Of a DNA stretch of 64,000 nt, positions 3,713 to 47,374 are shown piece after piece. Source of the DNA: Opitutia bacterium UBA4506. Lineage in GTDB: Bacteria; Verrucomicrobiota; Verrucomicrobiia; Opitutales; Puniceicoccaceae. The translations under genes were made by a program, and so were the position numbers. How positions within the stretch are numbered: the stretch's first letter is position 1; each line of letters begins with the position of its first letter. The notes beneath the pieces are model-generated. The model searched no databases and had not been told where the DNA came from. It worked only from the letters and a program-made list of their open reading frames with translations. Location: contig DGMY01000040.1 in assembly GCA_002388665.1 (NCBI GenBank), positions 8,093-72,092 of the forward strand. The letters run 5' to 3'.

Positions 3713-4081
3713 ATGAACGCGTTGATTTCCGAAATTACCAATGAGCAGCTACAGGACGACCGCTCCAACTTTAAAGTTGGGGACGGTGTTAAAGTCCACA
3801 CTCGTGTGCGTGAAGGGGAAAAGACCCGTATTCAGATATTTGCGGGGATTGTGATCGCTCGTAAAGGAGCGGGTATCCACGAAACATTTACCGTACGTCG
3901 TATTGCTTCGGGTGTAGGAGTTGAGCGTGTTTTTCCCGTTCACTCCCCAAACATCGAGAAGATCGAAGTTGATCGTGAGAGTGTGACCATGCGTGCTCGT
4001 ATGTACTACATGCGTGAGCGTATCGGCAAGCGCGCGAGCCTCGTGAAGGAAAAGCGCCTCGTCGAACAAGGCCGGAAATAA
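3713..4081 (+). CDS. rplS: 50S ribosomal protein L19
   Basis: FKVGDGVKVHTRVREGEKTRIQIFAGIVIARKG..ETFTVRRIASGVGVERVFP; start moved to MNALIS ATG at 3713. Confidence 0.97.
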   Translation: MNALISEITNEQLQDDRSNFKVGDGVKVHTRVREGEKTRIQIFAGIVIARKGAGIHETFTVRRIASGVGVERVFPVHSPNIEKIEVDRESVTMRARMYYMRERIGKRASLVKEKRLVEQGRK

Positions 4082-4102
4082 CCGGCGGCTCGGGGGGCGG
4101 GC

Positions 4103-4282
4103 ATGGATCCGGCGAAGCGGAACCGCAACCTGTTTATCCTCGCGCTGATCGTGGCGGCAGTCGCCGTAGGTTTTCTGAAATTGCATTTGTACCGATCTCT
4201 GCTGAAAGAAGGCTTTCAGGAAGAGAAGGTAGTTGAGTCGGTTTCTACACCGAGCGAAAACGAACCGAGTTCCCAACCATGA
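4103..4282 (+). CDS. Small single-pass membrane protein (59 aa), not in the ORF track
   Basis: MDPAKRNRNLFILALIVAAVAVGFLKLHLYRSLLKEGFQEEKVVESVSTPSENEPSSQP*; basic N-terminus plus one TM helix; stop overlaps the trpA start (ATGA at 4279-4282). Confidence 0.65.
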   Translation: MDPAKRNRNLFILALIVAAVAVGFLKLHLYRSLLKEGFQEEKVVESVSTPSENEPSSQP

Positions 4283-5100
4283 GTCGAGCAGACCGTATCG
4301 CCCACGCCTTCGATCCAGAACGTCTCAAGGCGGTTGGAAAATCGTCCGCATTCGTTTCATACACATGTGCCGGAGATCCGGACCTTGATACCTCGGTAAA
4401 GATTTACCGCAGTCTAATCGAGGCGGGCGTGGATGTGCTGGAGATCGGTGTTCCTTTCAGTGACCCGCTTGCAGACGGGCCCACGAATCAGCGGGCATCG
4501 GAGAGGGCATTGGCAAATGGGATGACCTCGGATCGAGTCTTTGAGCTCGTACGGCGTGTTCGCGAGATCTCGGACGAAGTGCCGATTGTTTTCTATACCT
4601 ATTACAATCTGGTATTTTCCCGCGGGCATGAAGAATACATTCAACGTGCGAAGGCCGCAGGGGTTGATGGGATTCTCGTCTTGGATCTACCTCCCGAAGA
4701 GGGGGAAGACCACCTCGCCCTCTGTAAGAAGCACGATTTGAAGACGGTTCTCATCGTGGCGCCGACGACCCCGGAGTCGCGTCTTCCCTTGATCAGTGCG
4801 GCTGCTACAGGATTCATCTACTATGTATCGCGGGAAGGGGTTACCGGCGAGCGGACTGATCTTGCACAGGGCGTTGAAGAGTCTCTGCAAAAAATCCGTG
4901 GAACTACGACATTGCCGGTAGTCGTTGGATTTGGGATTTCCAACCAAGAACAAGTTCGCGCTACGGCCAAGTCTGCATCTGGGGTAGTTGTAGGGAGTGC
5001 GATTGTCAAAAAGTGCGAGAATCTTTCGACAGATTCGGAAGATGGCTGGGCGGAGTTTGATGAGTTTTTGCGTGACCTGGTTGCGGGTTGCACAGTTTGA
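4279..5100 (+). CDS. trpA: Tryptophan synthase alpha chain
   Basis: VLEIGVPFSDPLADGP, YYVSREGVTG, VVVGFGIS, GVVVGSAIV. Confidence 0.96.
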   Translation: MSRADRIAHAFDPERLKAVGKSSAFVSYTCAGDPDLDTSVKIYRSLIEAGVDVLEIGVPFSDPLADGPTNQRASERALANGMTSDRVFELVRRVREISDEVPIVFYTYYNLVFSRGHEEYIQRAKAAGVDGILVLDLPPEEGEDHLALCKKHDLKTVLIVAPTTPESRLPLISAAATGFIYYVSREGVTGERTDLAQGVEESLQKIRGTTTLPVVVGFGISNQEQVRATAKSASGVVVGSAIVKKCENLSTDSEDGWAEFDEFLRDLVAGCTV

Positions 5101-5162: not shown

Positions 5163-5993
5163 ATGCTTTCTTTCTTTGCTAGAAATCCTGTCCCGGTGAT
5201 TCGCACCATCTTCTCCGGAACGTTGCTTCTTCTGCTGGCCTCTGGCTGTGCTACGATGGATAGTCGCAGTGCGGACGAAGTTGCGGAGCACCGGAAGCGA
5301 TATGAAAGTGCCATGGCGGAGTTGGAAAAGGTGTCGTTTGGCTCGGAGAAAGTGGTATCTTTGCATCCGAGAATGATTGCGCGGTCGAAAATGTCAGCGC
5401 AGCGGGTTGAGATTCGGGCGGAAGCTCAGGATGACGGCCTGCAGTTTGCGAATCGCTCCGCGACGGTTGTGGGATATCCGGTGATGCTGGAACTTACGAA
5501 CGAGGACAGTGTTGTGGTGAAAATCACTGATTTGGAAATTCGTCGGCGACCTCCTCATTTGGTTGGCCGGTATGAAGACCTGATTGGAACAGATCCGATT
5601 GTGCTGCAACCGCAGGAGTCGTGGGTAGGCAAATTTATTGTGTCACGAAAGAGCGGTTGGTATCGCGTAACGGTACAAGCAGCGGCTCCTGAAGGTTGGC
5701 TTGCGATTCCCGGACCAAATACTCGCAGTGTATACTTTAGGGAAGAGACCAACGCGAATCTAGGTTCTGCTGGATACAGTGCAGTTGTGACCTTCTGGAA
5801 TCTGAGCGAGGAGGCGGCGACCTTCCGTTATTGGCTAACCGCAGACGACGGGCACGGGGTACCCAAGTCATCCTTTTCTCAAGGGCTGATGGAGCTGGAG
5901 GCTGGTGAAGCGATCCAGATCGAAGTGATTACAGATACCCGAAACTGGTCACTGGTCACGGCACCGCCTGTCGAGGAAGAAGGAGGAGAGTAA
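5163..5993 (+). CDS. Hypothetical lipoprotein
   Basis: Lipobox LLLLLASGC after the likely start at 5163; beta-rich body; no family recognised. Confidence 0.6.
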
Positions 5994-5998
5994 GTCGT

Positions 5999-6793
5999 AT
6001 GAAAGTGTACCTCGATTTAATGCGTAGAATTCTTGAGGAAGGATCCTACCGTGACGACCGCACCGGAACGGGAACTTGGTCGCTCTTTGGCGCACAGCTT
6101 CGTTTTCGGATGGAGGATGGCTTTCCACTGGTGACAACCAAGAAAGTTCACCTGAAGTCCATCATCCACGAATTACTGTGGTTCTTGCGTGGGGAGACCA
6201 ACGCCAAGTCTCTTCAGGAGAACGGGGTAAAAATCTGGAACGAGTGGGCTGATCCTGACGGGGAACTGGGACGAGTGTACGGCGCACAATGGCGTTCCTG
6301 GCAGCGACCTGACGGAACCCATATCGATCAGATTGCGGAAGTAGTTCGGTCGATTCGGGAGAATCCCGACAGCCGTCGGCACATGGTATTGGCCTGGAAT
6401 CCGGGGGAAATTGAGCAGATGGCTTTGCCACCGTGTCACGCGCTCTTCCAATTCTACGTAGCAGACGGCCGCCTGAGCTGCCAATTGTATCAGCGTAGCG
6501 CTGACATTTTCCTGGGTGTTCCCTTTAATATCGCTTCCTATGCACTGTTGCTGCAGATGATGGCGCAAGTATGCGGATTGCAGGCGGGCGACTTTGTGCA
6601 CACCTTTGGGGATGTTCATTTGTACTCCAACCACAAGGAGCAAGCGAAAACGCAATTGTCTCGAGAACCGCGGCCATTGCCACGAATGATCATCAATCCA
6701 GCACGCCTGGAGATCGACGATTTTTGCTATGAAGACTTTGAGTTGGAGGGCTATGATCCCTGGCCCGCGATTCGGGCCCCAGTTGCCGTCTAG
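5999..6793 (+). CDS. thyA: Thymidylate synthase
   Basis: [22 protein letters not shown] (catalytic Cys), [18 protein letters not shown]. Confidence 0.98.
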
Positions 6794-6796
6794 AGA

Positions 6797-7288
6797 ATGA
6801 AGGACCTTACCCAAGTCAGCAGCGTATCCTGGATAGCGGTTGCCGCGATGGCGGAGAATCGCGTGATCGGCAAGGACGGCGCACTCCCCTGGCATCTGCC
6901 CGGAGATCTAAAATTCTTCAAGCAGCTAACGACTGGAGGAACGATACTCATGGGAAGGAAAACCTTTGAGTCGATCGGTCGACCTCTGCCCAGGAGACGG
7001 AATCTGGTATTGAGCCGGTCCGGAGTCAACGCTCCTGGGATCGAAGTCTTCTCCTCCGTAGATGATCTCTTGGGCGTTCTGGAGCGGGATGAACGCATCT
7101 TTGTTATCGGAGGTGAGGAGATTTACCGGCTGACCATGGACCTTTGGACTGAAGTGTATTTAACGCGGGTCTCGGGTAATCCTGATGGAGATGCCTTTTT
7201 TCCTGAGTTTGAGGAGCAATTCCCCGAAGTGCGCACTGTGCACGAGGAAGAAGACTTCACCGTAGAGCACTTCCGCCGGAAATTGTAG
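6797..7288 (+). CDS. folA: Dihydrofolate reductase
   Basis: VIGKDGALPWHLPGDLKFFK, MGRKTFESIGRPLPRRRN, VIGGEEIY, GDAFFP; directly after thyA. Confidence 0.95.
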   Translation: MKDLTQVSSVSWIAVAAMAENRVIGKDGALPWHLPGDLKFFKQLTTGGTILMGRKTFESIGRPLPRRRNLVLSRSGVNAPGIEVFSSVDDLLGVLERDERIFVIGGEEIYRLTMDLWTEVYLTRVSGNPDGDAFFPEFEEQFPEVRTVHEEEDFTVEHFRRKL

Positions 7289-7327
7289 GAGTCGACTGGG
7301 GATTCATTTGCGGGGCTATTTGCCCTG

Positions 7328-7981
7328 ATGACGGGCTCAACATTTTCCGCACACTTGATTGCAGGAAGCGGAAAACGTGGCATGCTGGCAGCCATGGTTG
7401 AAGATACTCGAAAGACCGTCACTCTCTTTCGCCATGGCGAAACGGAGTGGAGCCGCAGCGGACAGCACACATCGATCACCGATTTACCTTTAACTGAGAA
7501 AGGGCGGGCCGAGGCGCAACAGTTGCAACCCCTCTACAGCGGAGGCAATTTTTCTTTGATTTTATCGAGCCCGCGGAGAAGAGCCTTGGAAACAGCCGAA
7601 CTTGCGGGTGCGGGGAAGGACGTGGAAGAGGACGCTGACCTCGCGGAATGGTACTACGGGGATTATGAAGGTCTGACGACAGCTCAGATACGATCGAACG
7701 TTCCCGACTGGACCATCTTTACCCATCCGGTGCCGGGTGGGGAGACTGGAGCTGAAGTGGCCGCTCGGTGTGACCGGGTAATAGACCGGGCGATTCGGGC
7801 GGATGGGGACGTCGCGCTTTTCGCGCACGGTCATCTATTTCGTGTATTCGTCGCGCGATGGCTGCGATTGGGTCCAGAAGAGGGCAGGCATTTTGCCATA
7901 GGCACGGCCACTAGGAACCTACTTGGATACGAGCACGAGAACCGAGCCGTATTGATCTGGAACGCACCGACTAGCGCTTGA
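7328..7981 (+). CDS. Histidine phosphatase (phosphoglycerate mutase family)
   Basis: RHGETEWS motif, EWYYGDYEG, AHGH; true start may be 7382 or 7394. Confidence 0.9.
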   Translation: MTGSTFSAHLIAGSGKRGMLAAMVEDTRKTVTLFRHGETEWSRSGQHTSITDLPLTEKGRAEAQQLQPLYSGGNFSLILSSPRRRALETAELAGAGKDVEEDADLAEWYYGDYEGLTTAQIRSNVPDWTIFTHPVPGGETGAEVAARCDRVIDRAIRADGDVALFAHGHLFRVFVARWLRLGPEEGRHFAIGTATRNLLGYEHENRAVLIWNAPTSA

Positions 7982-8078
7982 GGCGGAGGCCGGTCAATTC
8001 GGTGGGAGCCAGGGCTTTGTCGGAACTTCCTCGATGACGGAAGAAGCTGACGGAGATTGAAGAAGAGATCCTGGCGGC

Positions 8079-9098
8079 TCAACCTTGGATTGTGTCGAGC
8101 AGGGCCTCGACGCAGTCGATCCGTGTCTTGGGGCTAAGCCCGTGGCCGCCGTTAAAAATAAATCCTGGATCGCCCTTGCGGTCGTCGAGGATTCTCCTGG
8201 CTGCCGCTCGCACGGATGCGGGGTCGGTCTCGAGGATCAGGGGATCAAGATTGCCTTGAATCGCAATGGAGGGCCCGACGGTATCGCGGGCAAGGGCGAG
8301 TGGAGTAGACCAATCAATCGCGATAGCCTCACTCTTCACCGATCGCTGCTCGTTGAGACGGCTGGCGGCGCCGCGGGAGAAGAAAATCGACGGTTTATCG
8401 CAGGAGCGGATGATTTGGCGGATGGGTTCCAGGCACCATTCCTCGTAGAAATCGGCGGGACAAAGAGAGGCCCATGAGTCGAAGAGTTGGATCGCGTCAG
8501 CCCCTGATTGGCATTGGAGTTTCACGTACTCGGAGCAGGCCGCAGTGATCTTCTCGCGCAGAATGCGGGCGGCATCGGGAGCCCGATAAAGCAGCTCACG
8601 GAGATTTCGTCCCTCGCCGGGGGAGCCTCCCTCAACCAAGTAGAGTGCCAGAGTCCAGGGTGCTCCGCAGAATCCCAGTAGAGTGGTTTCCTCCCTGAGT
8701 TCAGACCGCAATTGCTGGAGAGCTTTACCTACGTAGCTCAAGCGCTCGGCAGTACCCTCAGCCTGAAGCGCATTGACCTCCTCCTCCGATCGCACTGTGC
8801 GTTCCAGCTCAATTCCACCCTGATCACGGAATCGATAATCGACCCCGAGAGCTTCGGGAATGACCAGAATATCGCTGAAGAGGATAGCGGCGTCTAGGGT
8901 GGGGAACCGCTGGAGCGGTTGAAGCGTGACCTCGGTTGCCAAATCAGGCGTTTTGACCATTGTCCGAAAATCATGCTTCTGTTTGAGGGCTCGGTACTCG
9001 GGCAGGTAGCGACCTGCTTGACGCATCAGCCAGACCGGAGGCCGGTCGGAATTTTGGCAGGCGAGGGCATCGAGAAAACGTTTCCGAGAAGTGATCAT
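8079..9098 (-). CDS. hemE: Uroporphyrinogen decarboxylase
   Basis: PVWLMRQAGRYLPEY, DAAILFSDIL, QGNLDP, FNGGHG. Confidence 0.96.
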   Translation of the reverse strand: MITSRKRFLDALACQNSDRPPVWLMRQAGRYLPEYRALKQKHDFRTMVKTPDLATEVTLQPLQRFPTLDAAILFSDILVIPEALGVDYRFRDQGGIELERTVRSEEEVNALQAEGTAERLSYVGKALQQLRSELREETTLLGFCGAPWTLALYLVEGGSPGEGRNLRELLYRAPDAARILREKITAACSEYVKLQCQSGADAIQLFDSWASLCPADFYEEWCLEPIRQIIRSCDKPSIFFSRGAASRLNEQRSVKSEAIAIDWSTPLALARDTVGPSIAIQGNLDPLILETDPASVRAAARRILDDRKGDPGFIFNGGHGLSPKTRIDCVEALLDTIQG

Positions 9099-10060
9099 GG
9101 GCGGGATTCGGTCGATTCAAAAGGGGCTCCTGGAGAGAGCCAGTCGCGGGGGCGAAGAAATTCCTCTACCAGTAGGGCTTCGGGCGTGTCTGGGGTTGGT
9201 TCCCAGCCGTAAGACCAACAGGCCTCGGCAGGGAGAGACATCAGGATGGATTCGGTGCGGCCACCGGAGACCAAGCCGAAGCGAGTTCCCCTGTCGTGGA
9301 GAAGATTGAACTCGACGTAGCGGCCTCGTCGAAGGCGCTGAAACTGTTTTTGTTCCTCGTTAAAATCGGTGGCGGCGCGTTGGTCTAAGAGTGAAAAGAA
9401 GGCGTCGCGGAAGCCGTATCCAACTGATTTTGCGAACGCGAAAGTACGCTCGAACCCGAGTTCACAAAAGTCGTCGAAGAAGATGCCTCCGACCCCACGG
9501 CACTCATCGCGGTGGGGGAGATAGAAATAGCGATCGCATTCCTGTTTGAATCTGCGGTAGAGGCCCGGCTGAGACTGCTCGCAGATATCGTGAGCCGCCT
9601 GGTGCCAACGGATCGCATCCTCTTTAAATCCGTAGCACGGAGTCAGATCAAACCCGCCGCCAAACCACCATTGTATTTCCTGATCCTCGTGTTCTGGAAG
9701 GATGAAAAATGCGCGCACATTCATGTGGGCAGTCGGAGCAAATGGATTACACGGATGAAGCACGACGGAGACACCCATGGCTTCAAACGGACGACCGGCG
9801 AGCTCTGGCTTCCTGGCGGATGCAGGGGCTGGTAGGGCGTCGCCGCATACGCGGGAGAAATTGACACCACCCTTTTCGAGGATTCGACCACCTTGAACGG
9901 CGCGGGAAATTCCGCCGCCACCGCCGGGTCGATTCCACTTGTCCTCAATGATCAATTCGGAGCCCTCGCGGGCCTCGATCTCCTTGCAGAGATCATCCTG
10001 AAGGCGGAGGAAAGCCTCTTGGACCCGATTTGGTTCTTCAGGCTGAATGGTCTGCCTCAC
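9095..10060 (-). CDS. hemF: Oxygen-dependent coproporphyrinogen III oxidase
   Basis: EKGGVNFS, HMNVR, WFGGGFDLTP, RRGRYVEFNL..DRGT.FGL..GGRTESILMSLP. Confidence 0.96.
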   Translation of the reverse strand: MRQTIQPEEPNRVQEAFLRLQDDLCKEIEAREGSELIIEDKWNRPGGGGGISRAVQGGRILEKGGVNFSRVCGDALPAPASARKPELAGRPFEAMGVSVVLHPCNPFAPTAHMNVRAFFILPEHEDQEIQWWFGGGFDLTPCYGFKEDAIRWHQAAHDICEQSQPGLYRRFKQECDRYFYLPHRDECRGVGGIFFDDFCELGFERTFAFAKSVGYGFRDAFFSLLDQRAATDFNEEQKQFQRLRRGRYVEFNLLHDRGTRFGLVSGGRTESILMSLPAEACWSYGWEPTPDTPEALLVEEFLRPRDWLSPGAPFESTESRP

Positions 10061-10929
10061 TCTCCGGTGGGTAGCTCAGATTTCAACTGACGCCTGCGCG
10101 AATCGAGAAGCGGAAAGAATCCTTCGGCTTGGAGGGTTTCGGCAGCTGAATCTGAAAGCAGGAACTCGATGTAGGGCGCGAGAAAGCGGTACTGGCTGCG
10201 GGGAACGCAGATGTAGTAGGGGAGGGAAAGCGGATAGTCACCGTAGTTGACGTTCTCGAGGGTAGGGCCGAACGAAATCTCGCCCTCGGAAGATTCGATG
10301 CGAAGCGTTTTGAGATCTGGTGAAAGTGGAATCGTGTCAATGAAGCCAATCGCCCCATCATTGTTGCTGACATAGGACTCCAGGCGCAGGGAGGAGCTAA
10401 ATTCTTGGATCCCGGAACGAAGGGCTTCGCTCTCGAGGAAAGTTGCGCTGAACAAGTCGAGAATCGGGCTCAAGCCGGAGTTTGCGTAGGCGGCTTGGAT
10501 ATTACGATTTTGCCAGGAACCGGAGAGACCCAGAGCCGACCATCGAGCAATCGCATTCTCGCTCAGCGAGCCAAAGATGCCTCCAATTTGTTGTTGGGAA
10601 AGGGAATCGAGAGGATTCTTTTCATGTACAACAATCGCACCGATCTGGAATCCCAGGGGAATGACGGGGAAATCGTAGTCGCTGGGAGTTTTCTCGGGCA
10701 TGGCCACGAGAATGATGTCGGCATCGCCCTCGTAAAATTCACGGAAAGCGAGGAGACTGCCACCTAGGTTCACCTCGAGAAAGTCGCCCTCGGATTCGGC
10801 AAACTCTTTGAGAGATTCGATCAGGGCCTCTGGAATGTAGTCGGAGCCCTCAACCTTGATTACGCGGGCATGAAGACTCGATCCGAGGAGGGTCAAAGAG
10901 AGAAGCGAAAGGAGAAAGAAGGGTTTCAT
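10057..10929 (-). CDS. PstS-like periplasmic substrate-binding protein (divergent)
   Basis: Signal peptide; IVVHEKNPLDSLSQQQIGGIF, W..LG, GAIGF, GDYPLS PBP pattern. Confidence 0.7.
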   Translation of the reverse strand: MKPFFLLSLLSLTLLGSSLHARVIKVEGSDYIPEALIESLKEFAESEGDFLEVNLGGSLLAFREFYEGDADIILVAMPEKTPSDYDFPVIPLGFQIGAIVVHEKNPLDSLSQQQIGGIFGSLSENAIARWSALGLSGSWQNRNIQAAYANSGLSPILDLFSATFLESEALRSGIQEFSSSLRLESYVSNNDGAIGFIDTIPLSPDLKTLRIESSEGEISFGPTLENVNYGDYPLSLPYYICVPRSQYRFLAPYIEFLLSDSAAETLQAEGFFPLLDSRRRQLKSELPTGE

Positions 10930-10940
10930 ATACTAGGAAA

Positions 10941-12305
10941 TTAAGATTCGAGGAGTTCGGGCCAGCGTGCAAGCTTCCGATGAAGAGTACGGCGACTCAT
11001 CCCCAGTAATTCTGCAGCCTGGGTCTTGTTTCCACCGGTTTTTTGCAGGGCATTGCGCAAAAGTCGTTTCTCATTTTCTTCCACGGAAAGAGGATTTGAG
11101 ACCAGGCCGGAAATGGCGGTTCGGGCTGGGGGACCCTCGTCAAAAAACTTGGTTTCGAGATCGTACTCGGTCACGAGGCTACCGCGCTTCAGGATGACTA
11201 TGTTTTCGCAGAAATTCCGCAGTTCGCGGATGTTTCCCGGCCATCGATATTTCTGAAGGACCCCGACCGCATCGGGAGAGAATGTAACCGGGGGCAAATT
11301 GTTCTCCCGGCTGAAAGTGTCGACGTAGTATTCGAGAAGGAGTGGTATATCCTCCTGCCGATCGCGCAAAGGAGGGAGATCCAGCGAGATTACATTGAGT
11401 CGGTAGAGGAGATCGGCGCGGAAATTCCCGCGTCGGGCCATTGCGGCCAAATCTTTATTGGTGGCACAAACCAACCGGGCATCGATCGAAATTGTTTTAA
11501 CGCTCCCGAGCCTTTCGAGAGTGCGGGTTTCGAGAAAGCGCAGCAGCTTTATCTGGGTTGAAGCGTCGATCTCGCCGATCTCGTCGAGAAACAGCGTGCC
11601 CCCATCAGCCGCTTCGAACCGCCCGATCCGTCGTTCGGTGGCCCCGGTAAAGGCACCTTTCTCGTGACCGAACAGTTCGCTTTCCAGAAGATTGGATGCC
11701 AACGCCGCGCAATGAACGGCGACGAACGGTCGGCGACTCCGGTCGCTGTTCTGGTGGATGGCCTGAGCGATCAGCTCTTTACCGGTTCCCGTTTCGCCCT
11801 CGATCAAGACCGTAGCCTTGGAGGGGGCGACCAAGCGCACGGTATCGAGAATCTTTTGCAGTTTCGGGGAGTTGCCGAGAATCTCGTCAAACTTGAATTT
11901 CTGGTCAAGGCGCTGGTGAAGCGTCTGGTTCTCCTTTTCGAGTTGTTCGGTTTTGAGGGCGCGCTCGATCAGAAGTTCGAGTTTCTCCAGGCTTACCGGC
12001 TTGGTGAGGAAATCGTAGGCTCCCCGCTTCATTGCATCCACGGCGGTCTCCACATTCCCGTAGGCGGTCATCATGATGCAGACTGGCCGCGGCGAAATTG
12101 TCAGAGTCCGTTCGATCACGGACATGCCTGATTTGCCGGCCATCCTCAAATCGGTCAAAACCACATCAAAGCGGTCGCTTTCGAGATGATTGAACGCCTC
12201 TTTGGCATTGTTGGCGGTGGTGATCTCGTAACGGTCCTCCAATGCAGCCTCCAGACCTTCGAGGGTATGGGGTTCGTCATCTACGATTAGAATGGATGCT
12301 GGCAT
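10941..12305 (-). CDS. Sigma54-dependent response regulator (NtrC/AtoC family)
   Basis: REC (VVLTDLRM), Walker A GETGTGKE, GAFTGA, Walker B LFLDEIG, WPGNIREL, Fis HTH. Confidence 0.95.
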   Translation of the reverse strand: MPASILIVDDEPHTLEGLEAALEDRYEITTANNAKEAFNHLESDRFDVVLTDLRMAGKSGMSVIERTLTISPRPVCIMMTAYGNVETAVDAMKRGAYDFLTKPVSLEKLELLIERALKTEQLEKENQTLHQRLDQKFKFDEILGNSPKLQKILDTVRLVAPSKATVLIEGETGTGKELIAQAIHQNSDRSRRPFVAVHCAALASNLLESELFGHEKGAFTGATERRIGRFEAADGGTLFLDEIGEIDASTQIKLLRFLETRTLERLGSVKTISIDARLVCATNKDLAAMARRGNFRADLLYRLNVISLDLPPLRDRQEDIPLLLEYYVDTFSRENNLPPVTFSPDAVGVLQKYRWPGNIRELRNFCENIVILKRGSLVTEYDLETKFFDEGPPARTAISGLVSNPLSVEENEKRLLRNALQKTGGNKTQAAELLGMSRRTLHRKLARWPELLES

Positions 12306-12380
12306 GAAAGTCAGAGGATGATTTGAGACTTGCTGAGAGCAAGAAATTCTTTGGTCTTCCGCGGCTGTGGAAAAGAAGGG

Positions 12381-13688
12381 CTAGGATTCGAGGATGCTCG
12401 CGACAACTTTCTTGGGCGTTTGAGTGATGGAAGAGACCCTGTCGGTATCGTTGTCCAGGAACTCTGCCAGCGCGGTTACATATGAATCGCGATAGGACTC
12501 GAGAGATTCGAACAAGCTGATCTCGCGGAGTTGGCTCTTGGAAATGGCGGGTGTGTCATCCCCCGACATGGCTTCGATCACATCGCGGGTGGCGACTGGC
12601 CGGCCGGTGTGTCGTTGTTGGATTTGGAGAAGAACCTTGCGAAGCTCGGTGTAGTTCCCGGGCCACTCCTTATCGACTAAGGTGCGAATGGCCTCGTTGT
12701 CCCATGGAATTGGGCGGCCGTTGTCGTCTTCGGTGGATCGGGCAACCCACTCGATGTCTTCGGGGCACTCTCGCAGCGGGGGAACGTGGATCTCAGAGCC
12801 GCCCATGGACAAATAGAGTTCATCGCTCAAAGCGCCATCCTGATAGAGCGATTCGACATCTCTACTGATCATGAAGACAAAGCGGATGTGGCCATCCCAC
12901 TGGTTCTGGAACGTACCCCGGCGGGAGCTGCGGGCCAGTTGTTTTTGATGGGTTGGGTCGAGCAGATCAGTTTCGGGGATGCAAAGAACGAGATTGGACC
13001 ATCCGTTCTCGTACGCCTCGGCAGCAATTTCGCCAAGCCGGTCAATGGTGCAATCGGCGGATTCGATGATCCGGCCCCCCGAAGTCTCGCTGCTGACCCA
13101 GCGGCAAAAGTCTTCTGCAATCGCCCGTGAAGGAGTGCCGCGTGGAGTGACAATGCAGAGATTTTGCCTTCGGTTCCGCATCCGGTAAATAGACTCTGCG
13201 AAGGCGAGACTAGCTTCGGACTGGCAGGGCAGGGCGTGGAAGGGAAACCCGAGATTGCTGATTTCGGATTCGGATTCGTGATGGCTCTGAGGCTTCTGCT
13301 TTTGGGACTTCGATTTGCCTTCGGCGATCAATTTCGCTGCATTTTTCAGGAGCGAGAAAACGCTAAGCGGCTTTTCGTAGAGGCCAACGATCCCCTCAGC
13401 TTCCATTTTCTCCCGATCCTTGGACTCGAGAAAGCCCGACACCATGATGATGGGTAGCTCAGGGCGAATGGCTTTGATCTTTTGTGAAAGTTCGAAGCCA
13501 TTGAGCATGGGCATGCGCAAATCGGTCACCACGAGGCTGAAGTCCATCGAGCGAACAATATTCTCGACCTTGGTAGGATCTCCAGCGACCTCGACCTCGT
13601 AAGAAGCCTGAGTAAATACGTCGGAAAGGAGAGACGCAAAATCAAGATCGTCGTCAACAATGAGAATTCGGGTAGTTGTTTCTTCCAT
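12381..13688 (-). CDS. Response regulator with degenerate sigma54-type AAA+ domain
   Basis: Intact REC (DDD, VTDLRMP, K); remnant VPPLRECPEDI and WPGNYTEL; no Walker A, GAFTGA or DE Walker B. Confidence 0.75.
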   Translation of the reverse strand: MEETTTRILIVDDDLDFASLLSDVFTQASYEVEVAGDPTKVENIVRSMDFSLVVTDLRMPMLNGFELSQKIKAIRPELPIIMVSGFLESKDREKMEAEGIVGLYEKPLSVFSLLKNAAKLIAEGKSKSQKQKPQSHHESESEISNLGFPFHALPCQSEASLAFAESIYRMRNRRQNLCIVTPRGTPSRAIAEDFCRWVSSETSGGRIIESADCTIDRLGEIAAEAYENGWSNLVLCIPETDLLDPTHQKQLARSSRRGTFQNQWDGHIRFVFMISRDVESLYQDGALSDELYLSMGGSEIHVPPLRECPEDIEWVARSTEDDNGRPIPWDNEAIRTLVDKEWPGNYTELRKVLLQIQQRHTGRPVATRDVIEAMSGDDTPAISKSQLREISLFESLESYRDSYVTALAEFLDNDTDRVSSITQTPKKVVASILES

Positions 13689-41709: not shown

Positions 41710-43218
41710 ATGCCTAAACCCTTCTCTACCTCTCTTTATCTCGTTTCGATACTCAGTTCCTCGCTGGTTTCTCAAGCCGAAGTGAGTCTGCCAAACATTT
41801 TTGGCGACCACATGGTGTTCCAGCGTGAGCAAACCAATCCCGTATGGGGATGGGCCGAGGCCGGGGAGGAGGTGACGGTGTCCATCAACGGTCAGTCGCA
41901 TTCGACGACGGCTGACGAGAACGGTGACTGGCAGGTTGACCTGGAAGCGCTTCCAGTGGGCGGGCCCTATACGCTAACGGTCGAGGGGGAGAACTCGCTG
42001 ACTATCGAAGACGTACTTTCCGGCGAGGTTTGGCTTTGCTCTGGGCAGTCGAACATGGTTTGGCCCGTTAGCCGTTCGAATCACGCCGACGTTGAGATCG
42101 TCTCAGCAAATTTCCCAGAGATTCGATTGATTTCGATTCCCAATGTGGGTACGCAGGAACCGCAGGAAAACTTCAAAGGAGAGTGGGCTGTGTGTTCTCC
42201 CGAATCGGTACCGAACTTTTCGGCCGTAGGATATTTCTTTGGTCGTAGGATCCATAATACACTCGGCGTCCCGGTGGGGCTCATCGACAACGCCTGGGGC
42301 GGTTCCGCTGCAGAGGCCTGGGTGCCTCGGGAAGTGCTGGCAGAGTCGGATACCTTTACGGAATACCTCGATAATTGGGATCAGAAAATTGAAAACTTCA
42401 GTGAGGAAGCACACGCAGAGAAGCTCGCGGAGTTCAAAGCTTGGAAAGCCGCGGGAAGTCCAGAGCCGCGTATGAGGTATCCCCGTGATATCAGAGTTGG
42501 AAACGCTCGTCCCGGAAACTTGTACAACGGCGTTCTCAATCCGGTGATCGGGTACGGCATCCGCGGGGCTATCTGGTACCAGGGAGAGTCGAATGCTGGC
42601 CGGTCGGCAGAATATCAGGAATTGTTTCCCTTGATGATCTCGACTTGGAGAGATTCATGGGACCAGGGAGATTTTCCGTTCTACTGGGTCCAGTTGGCTG
42701 ATTTTAAGGAGGAACAGGACTCTCCAGCTCCCGGAGGATGGGCCTACGTACGTGAGGCGCAAACGATGACTTTGTCACTTCCGAATACAGGTGAGGCAGT
42801 GATCATTGACGCGGGGGAGGGTCGAGATATTCATCCGCGCGACAAGCAAACGGTTGCAGACCGTTTGGTGCGTCATGCTCTGGCCAATGAGTACGGTTTC
42901 GATTTGCAGGCGGCAAGCCCTCGATATGAGTCCATGGAAGTCTCGGGCAATGAGGTCATTCTCACCTTTTCCGAGGTCGATGAGGGGCTTTACGCTTTCG
43001 AAACCAAAGAGGTCATAGGGTTCGCCATTGCCGGTGAGGATGGTGAGTACGTCTACGCGGATGCTGAAATCGTTGGGAAAAACCAGGTGAAAGTGTTTGC
43101 CGAAGAGGTGGAGGTCCCTGTCGCGGTCCGCTACGCCTGGGCAAGCAATCCGGTTGCAAATCTGTATGACCGTAATGGCTTGCCGGTGACCCCATTCCGG
43201 ACTGATTCCGGCGAATAG
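41710..43218 (+). CDS. Sialate O-acetylesterase (SGNH carbohydrate esterase)
   Basis: Signal peptide; GEVWLCSGQSNM, WYQGESN, DIHPRDK, VRYAW, PFRTD. Confidence 0.92.
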   Translation: MPKPFSTSLYLVSILSSSLVSQAEVSLPNIFGDHMVFQREQTNPVWGWAEAGEEVTVSINGQSHSTTADENGDWQVDLEALPVGGPYTLTVEGENSLTIEDVLSGEVWLCSGQSNMVWPVSRSNHADVEIVSANFPEIRLISIPNVGTQEPQENFKGEWAVCSPESVPNFSAVGYFFGRRIHNTLGVPVGLIDNAWGGSAAEAWVPREVLAESDTFTEYLDNWDQKIENFSEEAHAEKLAEFKAWKAAGSPEPRMRYPRDIRVGNARPGNLYNGVLNPVIGYGIRGAIWYQGESNAGRSAEYQELFPLMISTWRDSWDQGDFPFYWVQLADFKEEQDSPAPGGWAYVREAQTMTLSLPNTGEAVIIDAGEGRDIHPRDKQTVADRLVRHALANEYGFDLQAASPRYESMEVSGNEVILTFSEVDEGLYAFETKEVIGFAIAGEDGEYVYADAEIVGKNQVKVFAEEVEVPVAVRYAWASNPVANLYDRNGLPVTPFRTDSGE

Positions 43219-43247
43219 GTTTACAGGCCTTTTCGATCCGATTCGGG

Positions 43248-44891
43248 TTGCCTCACTGGAGCATCGTTTTCAACCTAGCAGCACCTTCCGAATCCGGTTT
43301 TTCCGGTAGGTCGGTGTGTGTTGCCGTGGTGAACATCAGGGATTGGAACGTGTTTGTGGGGACCAGATTGGGCTGGTTTTTCCTGTGGATCTGTCTCCTC
43401 GTCTCCGGGAAAAATGGGGCGAATGCGGAGCCATACACAGTGGGTTGGTTTCTCTGGGATCCCTATGTACTCGAGGTGGAGGAGAATGGTGTTCAAAAAC
43501 TCTCGGGACTGAATGTTGAATTGGCCAACGCTGTCTTTGAGAAGATGGACCTGGAGGTCGAGTGGAAGGAAGTGGAATGGAAGGCCTATATGGACGAGAT
43601 GGCTCGACTGAAAGGCGACATCGCTGTGGGGGCCTCTCTGACGAGCGAGCGGGAGAAGGTCGCCTGGTTCTCGGATCCGTTCTTTGAGGAGAGTATTATT
43701 CTCTTGGGCCGGCGGAATGTCCCGAATCTGGAGTCGGACCTATCGCCAGCCGACCTCTTGCAAAAGGTCGAGGACCTGGGTCTGCGCGTAGTGTATGTGG
43801 ATGGCTACTACTACGGGCCAGCTGTGCTGAACTTTATTGAAAATTTGCCAGAGGAACAGCGTGTTGGCACCATGAACGACAGTGTGAGCATGGATCTGCT
43901 TCTAAACAATGAGGCAGATGTCATGATTGCTGATCGCTTCGTGGCGACGACGATTGCATGGCGGGCCGATGCGCTCGATGAAATCGAAATCTACCCTGCG
44001 CTCCTCAATCGGTCATCAATGCACGTCATGTTTGGCAAGGGATCATTCGATCCCGAAATACGGGATGAGTTCAATAGGACTCTCGCCGAGATGGAACTAG
44101 ACGGTTCAATTCAGGACATCAAGAGACGCTACATGCTACCGGTTCTCTTGGAGATCACTCTTCATTCGAATTGGTTTAGGTGGATTGGAATGGTTGGGGT
44201 TTTTGCCTTTGCGATCTCAGGTGTCCTTCTTGCTCGCAAAGAAGGGTACGACCTTTTCGGTGCGTTGGTACTGGCTAGCCTTCCCGCTCTAGGAGGGGGT
44301 GTTCTGCGCGACCTTTTGACCGATCGGCATCCCATTCTTCTCTTTCGTTCAAATCTTCAGGTATACATTTTTATCGTCATCGGTGTAGTGATCGGGGCAA
44401 CGGTCTGTTTCAAGGTTTACGATTTCCTGCAGAAGAGACGTCCAGGCTCGGGGGCTTTCTTTGGCTCGCGGTTCGTTAAATTGCCCATGCGATTGGTGAG
44501 CATCTGTGATGCCTTGGGCCTCTCCGCTTTCATTGTGACGGGTGTGTTGATTGCCCTGGAACAGCGGTGTGAGCCCTTGTGGTTGTGGGGTGCGCTGATT
44601 GCTGCCTTAACCGGTTCCGGTGGAGGTATTCTTCGAGACATCGTTCGAGCTGATGCAGAGAACCCGATGATAAAGGGGGAGTTCTATCCGGAAATTGCAA
44701 TTATCTGGGGGTTCTTCCTGTCGTTGTTTTTGGAATGGCAGACTACCCGCCTCAATTTGATCGAGATCGGGACTGCGGTTGTGGTCACGATGGTGGGCGC
44801 TTTTGTCACGAGGATGCTCGTAATCCGTTTTCAAATTAGAAGTCCTCTCCTGTCTCCCAGTATTTCTAATGCGAGGCCTCGTGCTTCCTAG
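43248..44891 (+). CDS. Fusion of amino-acid-type substrate-binding domain (SBP family 3) and TRIC/UPF0126 channel domain
   Basis: WDPY, G.NVEL..AV, T.ERE..AWFSDP, GSIQDIKRRY, then TRIC repeats FAISG..YDLFG..ALGGGVLRDLL and DALGL..GGGILRDIV..EFY; real start probably the GTG near 43350. Confidence 0.85.
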   Translation: MPHWSIVFNLAAPSESGFSGRSVCVAVVNIRDWNVFVGTRLGWFFLWICLLVSGKNGANAEPYTVGWFLWDPYVLEVEENGVQKLSGLNVELANAVFEKMDLEVEWKEVEWKAYMDEMARLKGDIAVGASLTSEREKVAWFSDPFFEESIILLGRRNVPNLESDLSPADLLQKVEDLGLRVVYVDGYYYGPAVLNFIENLPEEQRVGTMNDSVSMDLLLNNEADVMIADRFVATTIAWRADALDEIEIYPALLNRSSMHVMFGKGSFDPEIRDEFNRTLAEMELDGSIQDIKRRYMLPVLLEITLHSNWFRWIGMVGVFAFAISGVLLARKEGYDLFGALVLASLPALGGGVLRDLLTDRHPILLFRSNLQVYIFIVIGVVIGATVCFKVYDFLQKRRPGSGAFFGSRFVKLPMRLVSICDALGLSAFIVTGVLIALEQRCEPLWLWGALIAALTGSGGGILRDIVRADAENPMIKGEFYPEIAIIWGFFLSLFLEWQTTRLNLIEIGTAVVVTMVGAFVTRMLVIRFQIRSPLLSPSISNARPRAS

Positions 44892-45148
44892 GGAGGCAGG
44901 CTTGGGAGGGTTCTCTGGCCCATTATTCACCCGTTTGAGAAGGGCGGCCGCAGGGAATGGCTCAAGAATCCTTTGGGGGAAATCGTTCCATTTCTCCGTT
45001 GGATTCTCAGTGGGCCGGGAATTCGGTTCTATGTGAATAGCATAAATGCCAATGCGGTTCGGTAGATGCTGCGGTTTGTGGGATAGTGAGTTTCGGCGTT
45101 TTCTGCCATTCCAAACCCCAATCCCCAACCCCAAACCAAGGTTCACCA

Positions 45149-47374
45149 ATGAATCGGACTTCATGGCTTCTCTACTTGTTTCTATTTCTCTCGGGCGCAA
45201 TCAACGCTGTGGCTACGGAATACTGGATTTCCCCCAGCGGTGACGGATCGCTGGATGGCACCGACGCGGCGAATGCGATGCCGAAGAGCCAGATCGACAC
45301 TGTCCTCAACACGACTATGGGAGCAGGAGACACCCTGTTTCTGCTTTCGGGCGACTATGGATCGACTCAAATCTCACTTTCCTCAGATGGGGCGGAAGGA
45401 AATCCCAAGAGAATTGTCGGTGTAGATTCTGGCAGCGGATTGCCTCATTTTAGTGGAAATGGATCGTGGGGCAGGGACGATCCGGATTCAGGCCAGTGGC
45501 AGATTATCGGAGTCTATGGTCATCACTGGGTAGTCGAAGGTTTGGAACTGAGCGGAGTTCGCCGCGCGATCACAAACTCAAGTGGCAGTTCAGCGAGTTC
45601 GATACATTTTAAGAATCTCGATATTCACGACGTCCGTCACGGGCTCTACATCTACAATTTGGATGATTCGGTGTTCGAGGACGTGAAGGTGACTCACTAT
45701 ACCAAGCACGCATATCGCTTAGAGCAGGGCTGTGATGACGTGATGTTTCTTTCCTGCCTCGCGGATATGACCGATGGCGACACTAGCTGGTGGGCCTACG
45801 CGGAACTCTATCCATTTGGCTTTTTGTCCGAGGGAAAGAGTGTTGGAAATACGAATATCTCTTTCGTTGATTGTATTTCGAAAAACAACCGGAAGAACCT
45901 CCAGGACCGTAGTTATTGGAACGGGGACGGATTCGTCGTCGAAGGTGGAACCACAGGGGTCACTTTCGAAAATTGCATTTCGCTGAACAACGAGGATGGA
46001 GGGTTCGACCTAAAGCCCGAAGCCACAATCGTGAACTGCGTAGCCTTCCAAAATTACCGGGGGTTCCGCCTTTGGGGCGGAGGTACGATTACCAACAGTG
46101 TGGCAGGATTTCCCTACCGCCGGGCTGACCACGTGCCCGATGGAGTAGAATCTACCGGCGGAAGCGGAATTTGGACGAAGAATGGTACGCCTTCGCTGGA
46201 CTACTTTACGTTCTATGGGAACAAGGGTCGCGGCGCTCACGAAGAGGGCAGTGGATCGATCAGTTTAACCAACAGTATTCTCGCATTTTCCGGGGCGGAA
46301 GGAAGCTTCACCATTGGATCGGTTAGTTTGGGGGCTGGAACGGTTACCTATAAGTCAGGCTCCGGTGTTGATCCGGACTTCGTCAATCCACAATTGGGCT
46401 GGGATGGAATAGGGGACGACATGAACAGTCAGACCTACGAAGATTCCAAAGGCTACTTTCGTGGTGCTTTGGGCTTTGCGATGGAGGCGGGGAATCTGAG
46501 CGCCTATACTAGTGGCCAGTCAGATGGATCGAGCACAGCGACCTTGGATTCAACCGGCACGGCGTTGACTCTCTCCGGCAATATTTGGCGGAAGTACCCA
46601 CTTTCCTATGACATTACTGGAAACACGGTGATGCAGCTGAGTGTCGAGTCTAGCGATGTCGGAGAGATCATTGCGATCGGACTCGATAATGATAATGACT
46701 ACGAAGGATCGGCGAGGAATTTCAAGCTCGGTGGAAGTCAGTCGAGTGTCGCCGATTTCCATGTCATCAGTCCTGCATACGGCGCTGGTACTGGAATCGT
46801 CTGCTATCGAATTCCGGTCGGCGGGTTTTATACTGGCTCGATCAATTACCTGACGTTCATTGCCGATGATGACGACGATCAGAGTGCGGAGGTGACTTTC
46901 TCCCGAATCGAGATCTTCGAGTCGCCCGCTTTCGATGCTGCCAATCTTTCGGACTACGGCAATCAGACCGCGAGTGGGACTGCCACCCTCGAACAAAACG
47001 ACACTGCAGTTCACCTTGAAGGGAACATCTGGAGAAAGTATCCTTTTACTTATACCTTTACCGCGAACACCATGCTGGAGGTAACAGTTGACGCGAGCGA
47101 GGTAGGGGAAGTGATTGGGATCGGGTTCGATACCGACAACAGTTATACCAATTCGACAACGAATTGGATGTTGGGTGGAAGTCAGGCTCTGCCCAGTCAG
47201 TTCCAAGCAGTTTCTCCGGCGTACTCTGAGGGTGAAGGTGCGGTTACCTATGTGATTCCCGTCGGTTCCTATTTTACTGGGACCCGGAACTATATCACTC
47301 TCATTGCTGACGACGACGCGGCTGCCGCTGCCGACGTAGTCTTTTCCGATATCCGGGTATACGAAGCCCCGTAA
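45149..47374 (+). CDS. Secreted right-handed beta-helix (pectate lyase-like) protein with two C-terminal repeated beta-sandwich modules
   Basis: Signal peptide; SPSGDGSLDGT; NGDGF, NNEDGGFDLK, GFRLWGG; two ~150-aa repeats. Confidence 0.75.
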   Translation: MNRTSWLLYLFLFLSGAINAVATEYWISPSGDGSLDGTDAANAMPKSQIDTVLNTTMGAGDTLFLLSGDYGSTQISLSSDGAEGNPKRIVGVDSGSGLPHFSGNGSWGRDDPDSGQWQIIGVYGHHWVVEGLELSGVRRAITNSSGSSASSIHFKNLDIHDVRHGLYIYNLDDSVFEDVKVTHYTKHAYRLEQGCDDVMFLSCLADMTDGDTSWWAYAELYPFGFLSEGKSVGNTNISFVDCISKNNRKNLQDRSYWNGDGFVVEGGTTGVTFENCISLNNEDGGFDLKPEATIVNCVAFQNYRGFRLWGGGTITNSVAGFPYRRADHVPDGVESTGGSGIWTKNGTPSLDYFTFYGNKGRGAHEEGSGSISLTNSILAFSGAEGSFTIGSVSLGAGTVTYKSGSGVDPDFVNPQLGWDGIGDDMNSQTYEDSKGYFRGALGFAMEAGNLSAYTSGQSDGSSTATLDSTGTALTLSGNIWRKYPLSYDITGNTVMQLSVESSDVGEIIAIGLDNDNDYEGSARNFKLGGSQSSVADFHVISPAYGAGTGIVCYRIPVGGFYTGSINYLTFIADDDDDQSAEVTFSRIEIFESPAFDAANLSDYGNQTASGTATLEQNDTAVHLEGNIWRKYPFTYTFTANTMLEVTVDASEVGEVIGIGFDTDNSYTNSTTNWMLGGSQALPSQFQAVSPAYSEGEGAVTYVIPVGSYFTGTRNYITLIADDDAAAAADVVFSDIRVYEAP
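46475..47371 (+). repeat. Tandem duplication of a ~150-aa domain (46475-46927 and 46928-47371)
   Basis: Shared NLS.Y..Q, GNIWRKYP..Y..T.NT, VGE.I.IG.D.DN, LGGSQ, SPAY, Y.IPVG..YTG..NY.T.IADDD, V.FS.I...E. Confidence 0.9.

Follow-up and report, generated by a model that had tools for sequence, protein, structure and literature searches.

The 64-kb window analysed here is the whole 64,000-nucleotide stretch of contig DGMY01000040.1 from Opitutia bacterium UBA4506, and its forward strand carries a gene (43248–44891) for a fusion protein that joins a periplasmic family-3 solute-binding domain to a complete TRIC/UPF0126 pore domain. The fusion is an uncharacterised yet widespread combination of two known modules and is not specific to the window. 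Ligand binding on the outer side of the membrane is quite probably coupled functionally to the TRIC pore of the same protomer. As to the form of this coupling, we lean slightly and tentatively towards a binding-domain-dependent TRIC permease, in which a small amino acid would be fed into the pore, over a ligand-gated cation channel. In the proposed mechanism, the clamshell-shaped binding domain would catch a glycine- or alanine-like α-amino acid, small or apolar, when its concentration outside is low, and would hand it to the TRIC pore while opening that pore. The amino acid would then enter through the TRIC pore, possibly together with a cation. The assignment of the amino acid itself as the permeant is a similarly tentative one.

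Domain architecture of the fusion protein

The open reading frame (ORF) of the fusion protein extends from the most upstream in-frame TTG codon at 43248 to the stop codon and encodes 547 residues. In public records, the identical protein (P0001) is called with 513 residues from the GTG codon at 43350, which is the probable start; the GTG codons at 43326 and 43329 are alternative starts. Residue numbers follow P0001, except for the Pfam residue ranges, which are quoted on the 547-residue ORF. The features of the gene and its product are as follows.

43248–44891, + strand: whole ORF, most upstream in-frame TTG to stop, 547 residues
43350–43427, + strand: signal peptide (residues 1–26), with a hydrophobic core and the ending LLVSGKNGANA, an A-x-A site, directly before EP; without a lipobox cysteine
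43428–44138, + strand: periplasmic family-3 (class II, cluster F) solute-binding domain (residues 27–263), from Pfam SBP_bac_3, AlphaFold2 (AF2) and Foldseek
44139–44174, + strand: connector (residues 264–275), a helix that carries the last binding-domain helix on into the first transmembrane helix (TM1), from the AF2 secondary structure
44175–44828, + strand: complete TRIC/UPF0126 domain (residues 276–493), from Pfam, alignments to solved TRICs and hydropathy
Residues 276–294, 301–323, 336–354, 385–403, 410–428, 443–463 and 468–486: the seven transmembrane helices (TM1–TM7) of the TRIC domain, from hydropathy
44292–44312, + strand: first glycine kink and RD motif, in TM2 (G315, G316, G317, R320 and D321)
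44619–44639, + strand: second glycine kink and RD motif, in TM5 (G424, G425, G426, R429 and D430)
44808–44891, + strand: basic cytoplasmic C-terminal tail (residues 487–513, including R488) and stop codon

A first-pass annotation, made from the sequence alone, had described a single ORF with a signal-like segment, a complete family-3 domain and both TRIC repeats with GGG-x-x-RD motifs. Pfam and hydropathy agree with that description, and the coordinates proposed for the binding and TRIC parts proved right to within ∼30 nt. The SBP_bac_3 match covers residues 72–296 of the 547-residue ORF (nt 43461–44135) with an E value of 3.8e-19 and 69.2 bits, compared with a gathering score of 26.4. The Gly_transporter/UPF0126 family (PF03458) matches in two stretches with an E value of 5.1e-29 and 100.4 bits, compared with a gathering score of 23.5. 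The Pfam family Lig_chan-Glu_bd reaches only 20.7 bits over the clamshell, below its gathering score of 30, and neither Lig_chan nor Ion_trans matches the protein. The sub-threshold match means no more than that family-3 binding proteins broadly resemble the ligand-binding cores of ionotropic glutamate receptors (iGluRs). The form of the N-terminal segment suggests that the signal peptide is cleaved.

The binding domain adopts a predicted clamshell fold that resembles the liganded, closed structures of ArtJ, GlnBP, AncQR, LAO and TTC0807 in Foldseek comparisons (TM-scores of 0.80–0.85). The ligand-binding core of GluR0 (1ii5, TM-score of 0.83) and a binding-protein-like sensor domain of a histidine kinase (3h7m, TM-score of 0.84) are also among the matches, and the likeness to GluR0 noted at first pass is therefore borne out for the clamshell, among other relatives. 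In GlnBP, the large domain (G68, T70 and R75) and the small domain (D157 and G119) together hold the α group of the ligand, and the ligand side chain is contacted by D10 and A67 (PMC7400645). The motif G-x-(T/S)-x-T-x-x-R...F-S-x-P aligns unambiguously and places G94, S96 and R101 of the window protein at the positions of GlnBP G68, T70 and R75, and a D-x-x-x-x-D motif places D195 at the position of D157. R101 and D195 are 96–97% conserved across the family. Judged from this aligned motif set and the conservation of R101 and D195, the apparatus for an α-amino acid, or at least for a carboxylate plus an amine, is intact. GlnBP K115 and H156 are residues that we take, from the 1WDN structure, to be further side-chain contacts. 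At the side-chain positions D10, K115 and H156, the window protein contains W33, V150 and A194, and these residues are surrounded by W36, W77 and Y153–155. With such residues at the side-chain positions, the pocket would be apolar and aromatic and probably small, and it would suit an amino acid that is small or apolar.

The TRIC part aligns in sequence searches to SsTRIC (5h35, E value of 5e-16), SaTRIC (5wtr), CpTRIC (5wuf) and RsTRIC (5h36). Pore phenylalanines and lock residues have been described for prokaryotic TRICs (PMC5143425, PMC5401562), as has the role of the glycine kinks (PMC5477506, PMC5143425). In the alignment, F287 and F394 of the window protein correspond to the in-line pore phenylalanines F16 and F104 of SsTRIC. 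The cytoplasmic hydrogen-bond lock of SsTRIC (D97, R137/D138, Y153 and R187) is matched by D387, R429/D430, Y446 and R488. The two GGG kinks and residues F287, F394, D387, R429/D430, Y446 and R488 are 96–100% conserved in the fusion family and are common to CpTRIC-like stand-alone proteins, a narrow comparison set that was seeded with a CpTRIC fragment and holds only Colwellia-like proteins of at least 79% identity. Every sequence-level defining feature of TRIC/UPF0126 proteins (TC 1.A.62) is found in the window protein.

Prokaryotic TRICs are oriented with a periplasmic N-terminus and a cytoplasmic C-terminus (PMC5143425), so a domain placed ahead of TM1 lies outside and needs no extra membrane helix. 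The distribution of charges in 117 family sequences fits this orientation, with a mean of 13.8 lysine and arginine residues in the predicted cytoplasmic loops and 3.3 in the periplasmic loops. A hydrophobic core precedes the binding domain in 109 of the 117 members. These features point to a binding domain on the outside and a C-terminus on the inside. In the AF2 monomer model, built from the 117-sequence alignment with a predicted local distance difference test (pLDDT) score of 90.9 and a predicted template modelling (pTM) score of 0.84, the binding domain mostly exceeds a pLDDT of 90. The last helix of the binding domain (residues 253–271) is followed by a two-residue break and the TM1 helix (residues 274–297), which suggests a near-continuous helix from the clamshell into TM1. 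The connector residues P264, L266, T270 and W275 and the first TM1 residue, F276, are 92–100% conserved. The helix that the connector enters, TM1, also contains the pore phenylalanine F287, the other of the pair being F394. The topology that had been expected from the first pass, with the binding domain outside and a linker to TM1, fits the TRIC orientation, the charge bias and the modelled helix. The fusion protein is probably a trimeric, single-chain inner-membrane protein.

Distribution and variants of the fusion family

The fusion architecture recurs far beyond the window. Both Pfam domains are present in all of the 120 best of 323 homologs. A scan that used one genome per species identified relatives in 187 species genomes, of which the best 80 match residues ∼32–500 in a single frame, and the family spreads over ∼10 phyla. 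The best 80 genomes come from Verrucomicrobiota, Planctomycetota, Kiritimatiellia, Alpha-, Beta- and Gammaproteobacteria, Acidobacteriota, Ignavibacteriales, Myxococcota, Desulfobacteraceae and Cyanobacteria. Complete genomes with the fusion include those of Synechococcus WH 8017, Synechococcus MIT S9451 and Ca. Caedibacter acanthamoebae, and the fusion also occurs in the strain Bauldia litoralis ATCC 35022. Small genomes also retain the gene, namely a 1.35-Mb Burkholderiaceae chromosome, marine Synechococcus, Caedibacter and metagenome-assembled genomes (MAGs) of Rickettsiales. Among 1.84 billion cluster representatives, 189 clusters (50% identity) match at an E value of 1e-30 or lower, and about three-quarters of the best 150 cluster matches align in one stretch across both domains. 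Full-length relatives of the window protein display 34–73% identity over both domains. The family is entered in databases under the names 'TRIC cation channel family protein', 'transporter substrate-binding domain-containing protein' and 'polar amino acid transport system substrate-binding protein'. Searches of ∼8.3 million papers yielded no paper that describes or tests a fusion of a solute-binding protein to a TRIC and no phenotype for any member, in line with the first-pass remark that there was no characterised example. A paper on Shewanella yadS and one by Aravind on ER calcium proved to have no bearing on the fusion.

In principle, mis-assembly, read-through from one gene into another or a pseudogene could mimic such a fusion. 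A few database entries indeed look truncated or internally deleted (e.g. P0343 and P0303), and some relatives stand alone. The evidence from the window and its relatives nevertheless makes an artefact so improbable that it can practically be set aside. The window derives from a marine metagenome. The frame is uninterrupted, and the fusion region lies on a 75.7-kb contig at a depth of 27.6 with zero differences. Identical 151-nt contig pieces across the domain junction were found in two samples from a separate 2024 metagenome study. The same architecture is present in the 187 species genomes, complete chromosomes included, and in the 120 best homologs. The closest relative, P0002 from a Puniceicoccales MAG, is 73% identical overall, with 63% identity in the binding domain, 77% in the connector and 87% in the TRIC domain. 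The binding domains of the two proteins differ by 0.31 nonsynonymous substitutions per site (dN), and the ratio to synonymous substitutions (dS) is estimated at ∼0.11, which is only rough because dS is near saturation. On this comparison of coding sequences, both halves of the fusion protein are under purifying selection. The suspicion of an assembly or read-through artefact that accompanied the first-pass annotation is thus answered by the fused homologs, the independent junction-spanning pieces and the purifying selection.

In one of the irregular entries, P0343 (273 residues), the N-terminal lobe of the binding domain is followed at once by a short linker of unrelated sequence and then by TM4–TM7 of the TRIC part. 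This entry, which probably reflects an internal deletion, a pseudogene or a chimeric assembly, illustrates that the family includes a few damaged entries.

The window protein departs from the family consensus mainly in the binding domain. The substitutions D55N, Y111F, R112F and V238R are found both in the window protein and in P0002. S229 is replaced by glycine in the window protein and by alanine in P0002, and the near-invariant P337 (glutamine in the window protein) is likewise off consensus in both proteins, again not identically. G87L and G148V are confined to the window protein. In the rest of the family, D55, G87, Y111, R112, G148, S229 and V238 are 87–98% conserved, with R112 at 98%. 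Most of the substitutions in this lineage appear conservative and seem to lie at general fold positions, but R112F does not follow this pattern. All of the TRIC-side invariants are retained in the window protein, whereas the binding-domain residues D55, G87, Y111, R112, G148 and S229 are replaced. From these sequence features, the window protein is a member of the fusion family on a divergent Puniceicoccales branch.

The same clade includes stand-alone TRICs that contain no binding domain (P0375, P0369, P0373 and P0378; 223–246 residues and 41–48% identity to the TRIC part of the window protein). P0375 has 243 residues, is 48% identical to the window TRIC part and is encoded by a complete gene on five contigs (L089 at 4001–4732, L090 and L091 among them). 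The gene follows downstream of a molybdopterin oxidoreductase gene that runs in the opposite direction, and no family-3 binding-protein gene adjoins it. The stand-alone relatives keep the W-F pair before TM1, R326 and the P-L-W-L-W-G-P motif. W275/F276, R326 and P-L-W-L-W-G-P (residues 409–415) had been candidates for a surface on which the binding domain docks, and this role was set aside because the motifs persist in relatives without a binding domain; these clade motifs are consequently no evidence that the binding domain docks there. The pore seems to be autonomous, with the binding domain as an addition to it.

Another subgroup of ∼640–750 residues (P0007–P0010, P0012, P0046, P0058 and P0105; loci L003 at 6001–8163, L070 and L080) carries an extra cytoplasmic C-terminal domain of ∼200 residues. 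No Pfam family matches this extension even at an E value of 10. Its AF2 model is a helical bundle with a pLDDT of 83.8 and a pTM of 0.83, and its ten best matches in the Protein Data Bank are all PhoU or PhoU-like (4q25, TM-score of 0.71). Members of the extended subgroup consist of three modules, a binding domain, a TRIC domain and a PhoU-like domain, of which the window protein lacks the last.

Feeding or gating of the TRIC pore

The tentative preference for feeding an amino acid into the pore derives from both halves of the fusion. Stand-alone bacterial UPF0126 proteins are needed specifically for glycine use in five species (10.1101/072470). In-vivo data on bacterial UPF0126 proteins are limited to these glycine defects, and with them the TRIC half points to amino acids just as the binding half does. 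The small and apolar appearance of the pocket, the lack of a partner gene and the retention of the gene in small genomes support feeding as well. Fused family-3 domains in bacteria usually feed translocators, and the PhoU-like fold is otherwise known as a regulator of transporters; the subgroup with the PhoU-like extension is counted for feeding for this reason.

Several observations weigh against the permease. The four TRICs studied electrophysiologically conduct K+ (PMC5143425, PMC5477506, PMC5401562), and the glycine genetics favours transport about as much as this electrophysiology favours a channel. Closed TRIC pores are narrow, and no direct demonstration of an amino acid crossing a TRIC pore is on record. 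A passive pore would also offer no obvious energy source for the release of a ligand that is tightly bound in the clamshell. The short, predicted helical connector resembles the helix that joins sensor to membrane in binding-protein-type sensor kinases more than the flexible tethers of fused ATP-binding cassette (ABC) systems. On the ligand side, no equivalog-level match was obtained, as the best NCBIfam model, TIGR01096, scores 43.8 bits compared with a cut-off of 256 and the others score lower, so the ligand cannot be named by homology. Position 96 is split between threonine and phenylalanine across the family, which suggests more than one ligand specificity within it. The window protein itself contains F112 instead of the 98%-conserved arginine, together with N55, L87, V148 and G229. 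Finally, a literature search for a functional test of any member of the fusion family found none.

An amino-acid-gated cation channel is a possible, if somewhat doubtful, alternative to the permease. In such a channel, clamshell closure would move the connector and TM1, and with it F287, to open a K+ or cation pore in each protomer. The logic would be that of iGluRs and GluR0 on an unrelated, trimeric three-pore scaffold, and the output would be membrane-potential signalling or ion balance. Solved prokaryotic TRICs conduct K+ and have an unknown gating stimulus (PMC5477506, PMC5143425, PMC5401562), and the window protein retains F287, F394, both GGG kinks, D387, R429/D430, Y446 and R488. The short helical connector runs, in the model, straight into TM1, and the clamshell matches both the GluR0 core (1ii5) and the histidine-kinase sensor (3h7m). 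A bacterial binding protein grafted onto the GluR0 pore can gate that pore (10.1101/2021.01.27.428399). The gated channel, however, leaves the glycine-specific phenotypes of UPF0126 mutants unexplained, and it would have to work through a single covalent link between clamshell and pore. Gating in iGluRs, by contrast, operates through a dimer brace and through linkers attached to the mobile lobe. Moreover, the cytoplasmic lock would still have to open, and relatives in the same clade occur without any binding domain. Natural amino-acid-gated TRIC channels would constitute a third independently evolved ligand-gated class besides iGluR/GluR0 and the pentameric channels, trimeric and with one gated pore per subunit; this prospect is a doubtful one.

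It is improbable that the binding domain handles neither a transported nor a gating ligand and serves instead as a sensor, an assembly or stabilising module, or a reporter of the outside concentration for an efflux pore. A 2011 abstract by Silverio and Saier is said to mention fused N- or C-terminal domains in prokaryotic TRIC homologues and to propose amino-acid or nucleotide efflux. The domain in the window lineage may also have drifted to another ligand or lost binding. The departures of this lineage (D55N, Y111F, R112F and V238R, those at S229 and P337, and G87L and G148V) are compatible with such a role or loss, as is the faster evolution of the binding domain relative to the TRIC part (63% versus 87% identity to P0002), and the stand-alone relatives imply that the TRIC part can work alone. 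However, the retention of R101 and D195 and the dN/dS of ∼0.11, with dS near saturation, imply that the domain is constrained, most of the lineage substitutions seem conservative and placed at general fold positions, and a binding domain would be of no obvious use to an exporter.

Either answer, the feeding or the gating of the pore, would be new. If the domain feeds the pore, the family would represent binding-protein-dependent uptake without an ABC ATPase or the membrane component of a TRAP or TTT transporter. If it gates the pore, the family would be a new class of ligand-gated channel and would provide the first TRICs with a known physiological stimulus, widespread in Verrucomicrobiota, Proteobacteria, Cyanobacteria and other groups. 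In both cases, the fusion offers an experimental route to what bacterial TRICs do, what controls them and how they are linked to glycine. With at least 187 species genomes as carriers, among them those of marine Synechococcus, freshwater Burkholderiaceae and marine Verrucomicrobiota, the family is sufficiently common to be studied in culturable hosts, and it could matter for the uptake or sensing of amino acids by aquatic bacteria.

Genomic context and relation to known systems

The surroundings of the gene contain no candidate partner. The absence of an ABC permease or ATPase nearby, noticed at first pass, was upheld by a motif scan of the 64-kb window, in which the ABC transporter set (Walker A, the ABC signature LSGGQ and the EAA loop) was found nowhere, and by a Pfam analysis of 16 neighbouring or large ORFs, which detected no ABC permease or ATPase. 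The nearby genes encode a sialate-O-acetylesterase-like protein, a beta-helix protein, a melibiase, an AraC regulator, a GT4 glycosyltransferase, an SDR protein and a ketoacyl synthase, and GltB, two sigma-54 response regulators and HemE/HemF are encoded farther away in the window. In five homolog contexts and in an all-against-all clustering of ORFs from 86 loci, no neighbour is conserved across phyla, and only lineage-specific synteny is observed. The fusion protein appears self-sufficient, because no partner gene is found in the window or in the 86 related loci. An Rfam scan of the whole window for an upstream riboswitch or RNA element returned four tRNAs only, and a promoter and terminator scan of 43000–45300 returned nothing above the shuffled expectation.

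The largest recurrent 'neighbour' cluster, with members in 28 loci, was rejected, as it appears from the coordinates of its representative to consist of antisense shadow ORFs over the fusion gene. In the window, antisense ORFs of 61–197 residues overlap the fusion gene at 43253–43496 (−) and 44417–45200 (−) and are most likely not genes.

Several lineage-specific arrangements were observed in the related loci. A Liv-type (Peripla_BP_6) ABC operon lies just downstream of the fusion gene in six alpha- and beta-proteobacterial loci (L006, L023, L027, L028, L048 and L054), a convergent gene for an MlrC-like peptidase occurs in seven Burkholderiaceae loci (within L019–L027), and a PiT/PHO4 phosphate transporter gene is divergently placed upstream in L004/L005. 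A small gene with a STAS domain (anti-sigma-antagonist-like) is located near the fusion in five loci (L003, L060, L070, L074 and L080; for example, at 5580–5927 in L074 and 8170–8502 in L003), whose hosts are Opitutaceae, Lysobacterales and, for L003, a metagenome contig. At least four of these loci (L003, L060, L070 and L080) also contain a large hybrid sensor kinase or a SpoIIE-type response regulator nearby. The STAS association takes in all three loci with the PhoU-like extension and may be lineage synteny only.

Two other regions of the window were examined. The downstream gene at 45086–47374 (+) encodes a 762-residue protein with a right-handed beta-helix region (Pfam Beta_helix, 35.8 bits) followed by two repeated C-terminal modules of ∼130–150 residues each (...NIWRKYPLSYDITGNTVMQLSVESSDVGEIIAIGLDNDNDY... 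and ...NIWRKYPFTYTFTANTMLEVTVDASEVGEVIGIGFDTDNSY...). The C-terminal repeats are clear and represent an internal tandem duplication; the module itself matches no assigned family and is probably carbohydrate-binding. At 10941–13688 (−), two adjacent response-regulator genes lie beside a gene for a PBP_like_2 protein (10057–10929) and hemF and hemE (8079–10060). One of the regulators has a full sigma-54 activator domain and an HTH_8 domain; the other displays a weak Sigma54_activ_2 match only, and no DNA-binding domain was detected in it.

Prokaryotic TRICs are among the nearest counterparts of the fusion protein. Like SsTRIC, SaTRIC, CpTRIC and RsTRIC, it contains seven transmembrane helices (an inverted 3+3 repeat plus TM7), the phenylalanine pair, the D-R-Y-R lock and a GGG kink in each of TM2 and TM5, with the N-terminus outside and the C-terminus inside. 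The solved proteins, however, have only ∼210 residues, no extramembrane domain and no known stimulus, whereas the fusion protein carries a ∼240-residue periplasmic binding domain on TM1 and the clade residues P312, R326, L-W-L-W-G-P (residues 410–415), E448 and W453. The UPF0126 'glycine transporter' proteins (for example, SO1319 and Psest_1636; 10.1101/072470) share the two PF03458 stretches. They differ in standing alone, and their connection to glycine is genetic only; the link to amino acids is made there by phenotype and here by the fused domain.

The fusion protein resembles an iGluR or an ABC importer in logic only. GluR0 and the iGluRs likewise combine a family-3-type clamshell and an ion-conducting membrane domain in one chain. 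In iGluRs, the pore is tetrameric and of the K+-channel P-loop type, its segments interrupt the clamshell, and the linkers start from the mobile lobe. In the fusion protein, each TRIC protomer would form its own pore in an expected trimer, and the contiguous clamshell is joined to it only via its C-terminal helix. The fusion protein is not an iGluR (TC 1.A.10) because it contains no P-loop pore. The ABC importer GlnPQ (6h30/4kqp) also has SBP_bac_3 domains N-terminal to a translocator, and GlnPQ domains are among the best sequence matches of the fusion. Unlike GlnPQ, the fusion has no BPD_transp permease or ATPase in the protein or nearby, for which reason it is not an ABC importer, and a short helical connector takes the place of a flexible tether. 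TRAP and TTT transporters provide a precedent for a binding protein that serves a non-ABC membrane transporter. Their binding-protein families and membrane folds are unrelated to those of the fusion, and their binding protein is normally a separate polypeptide. The binding-protein sensors of histidine kinases (3h7m; BvgS-like) share with the fusion protein a last clamshell helix that continues into a transmembrane helix, but their output is a kinase, whereas that of the fusion protein is a pore-forming domain.

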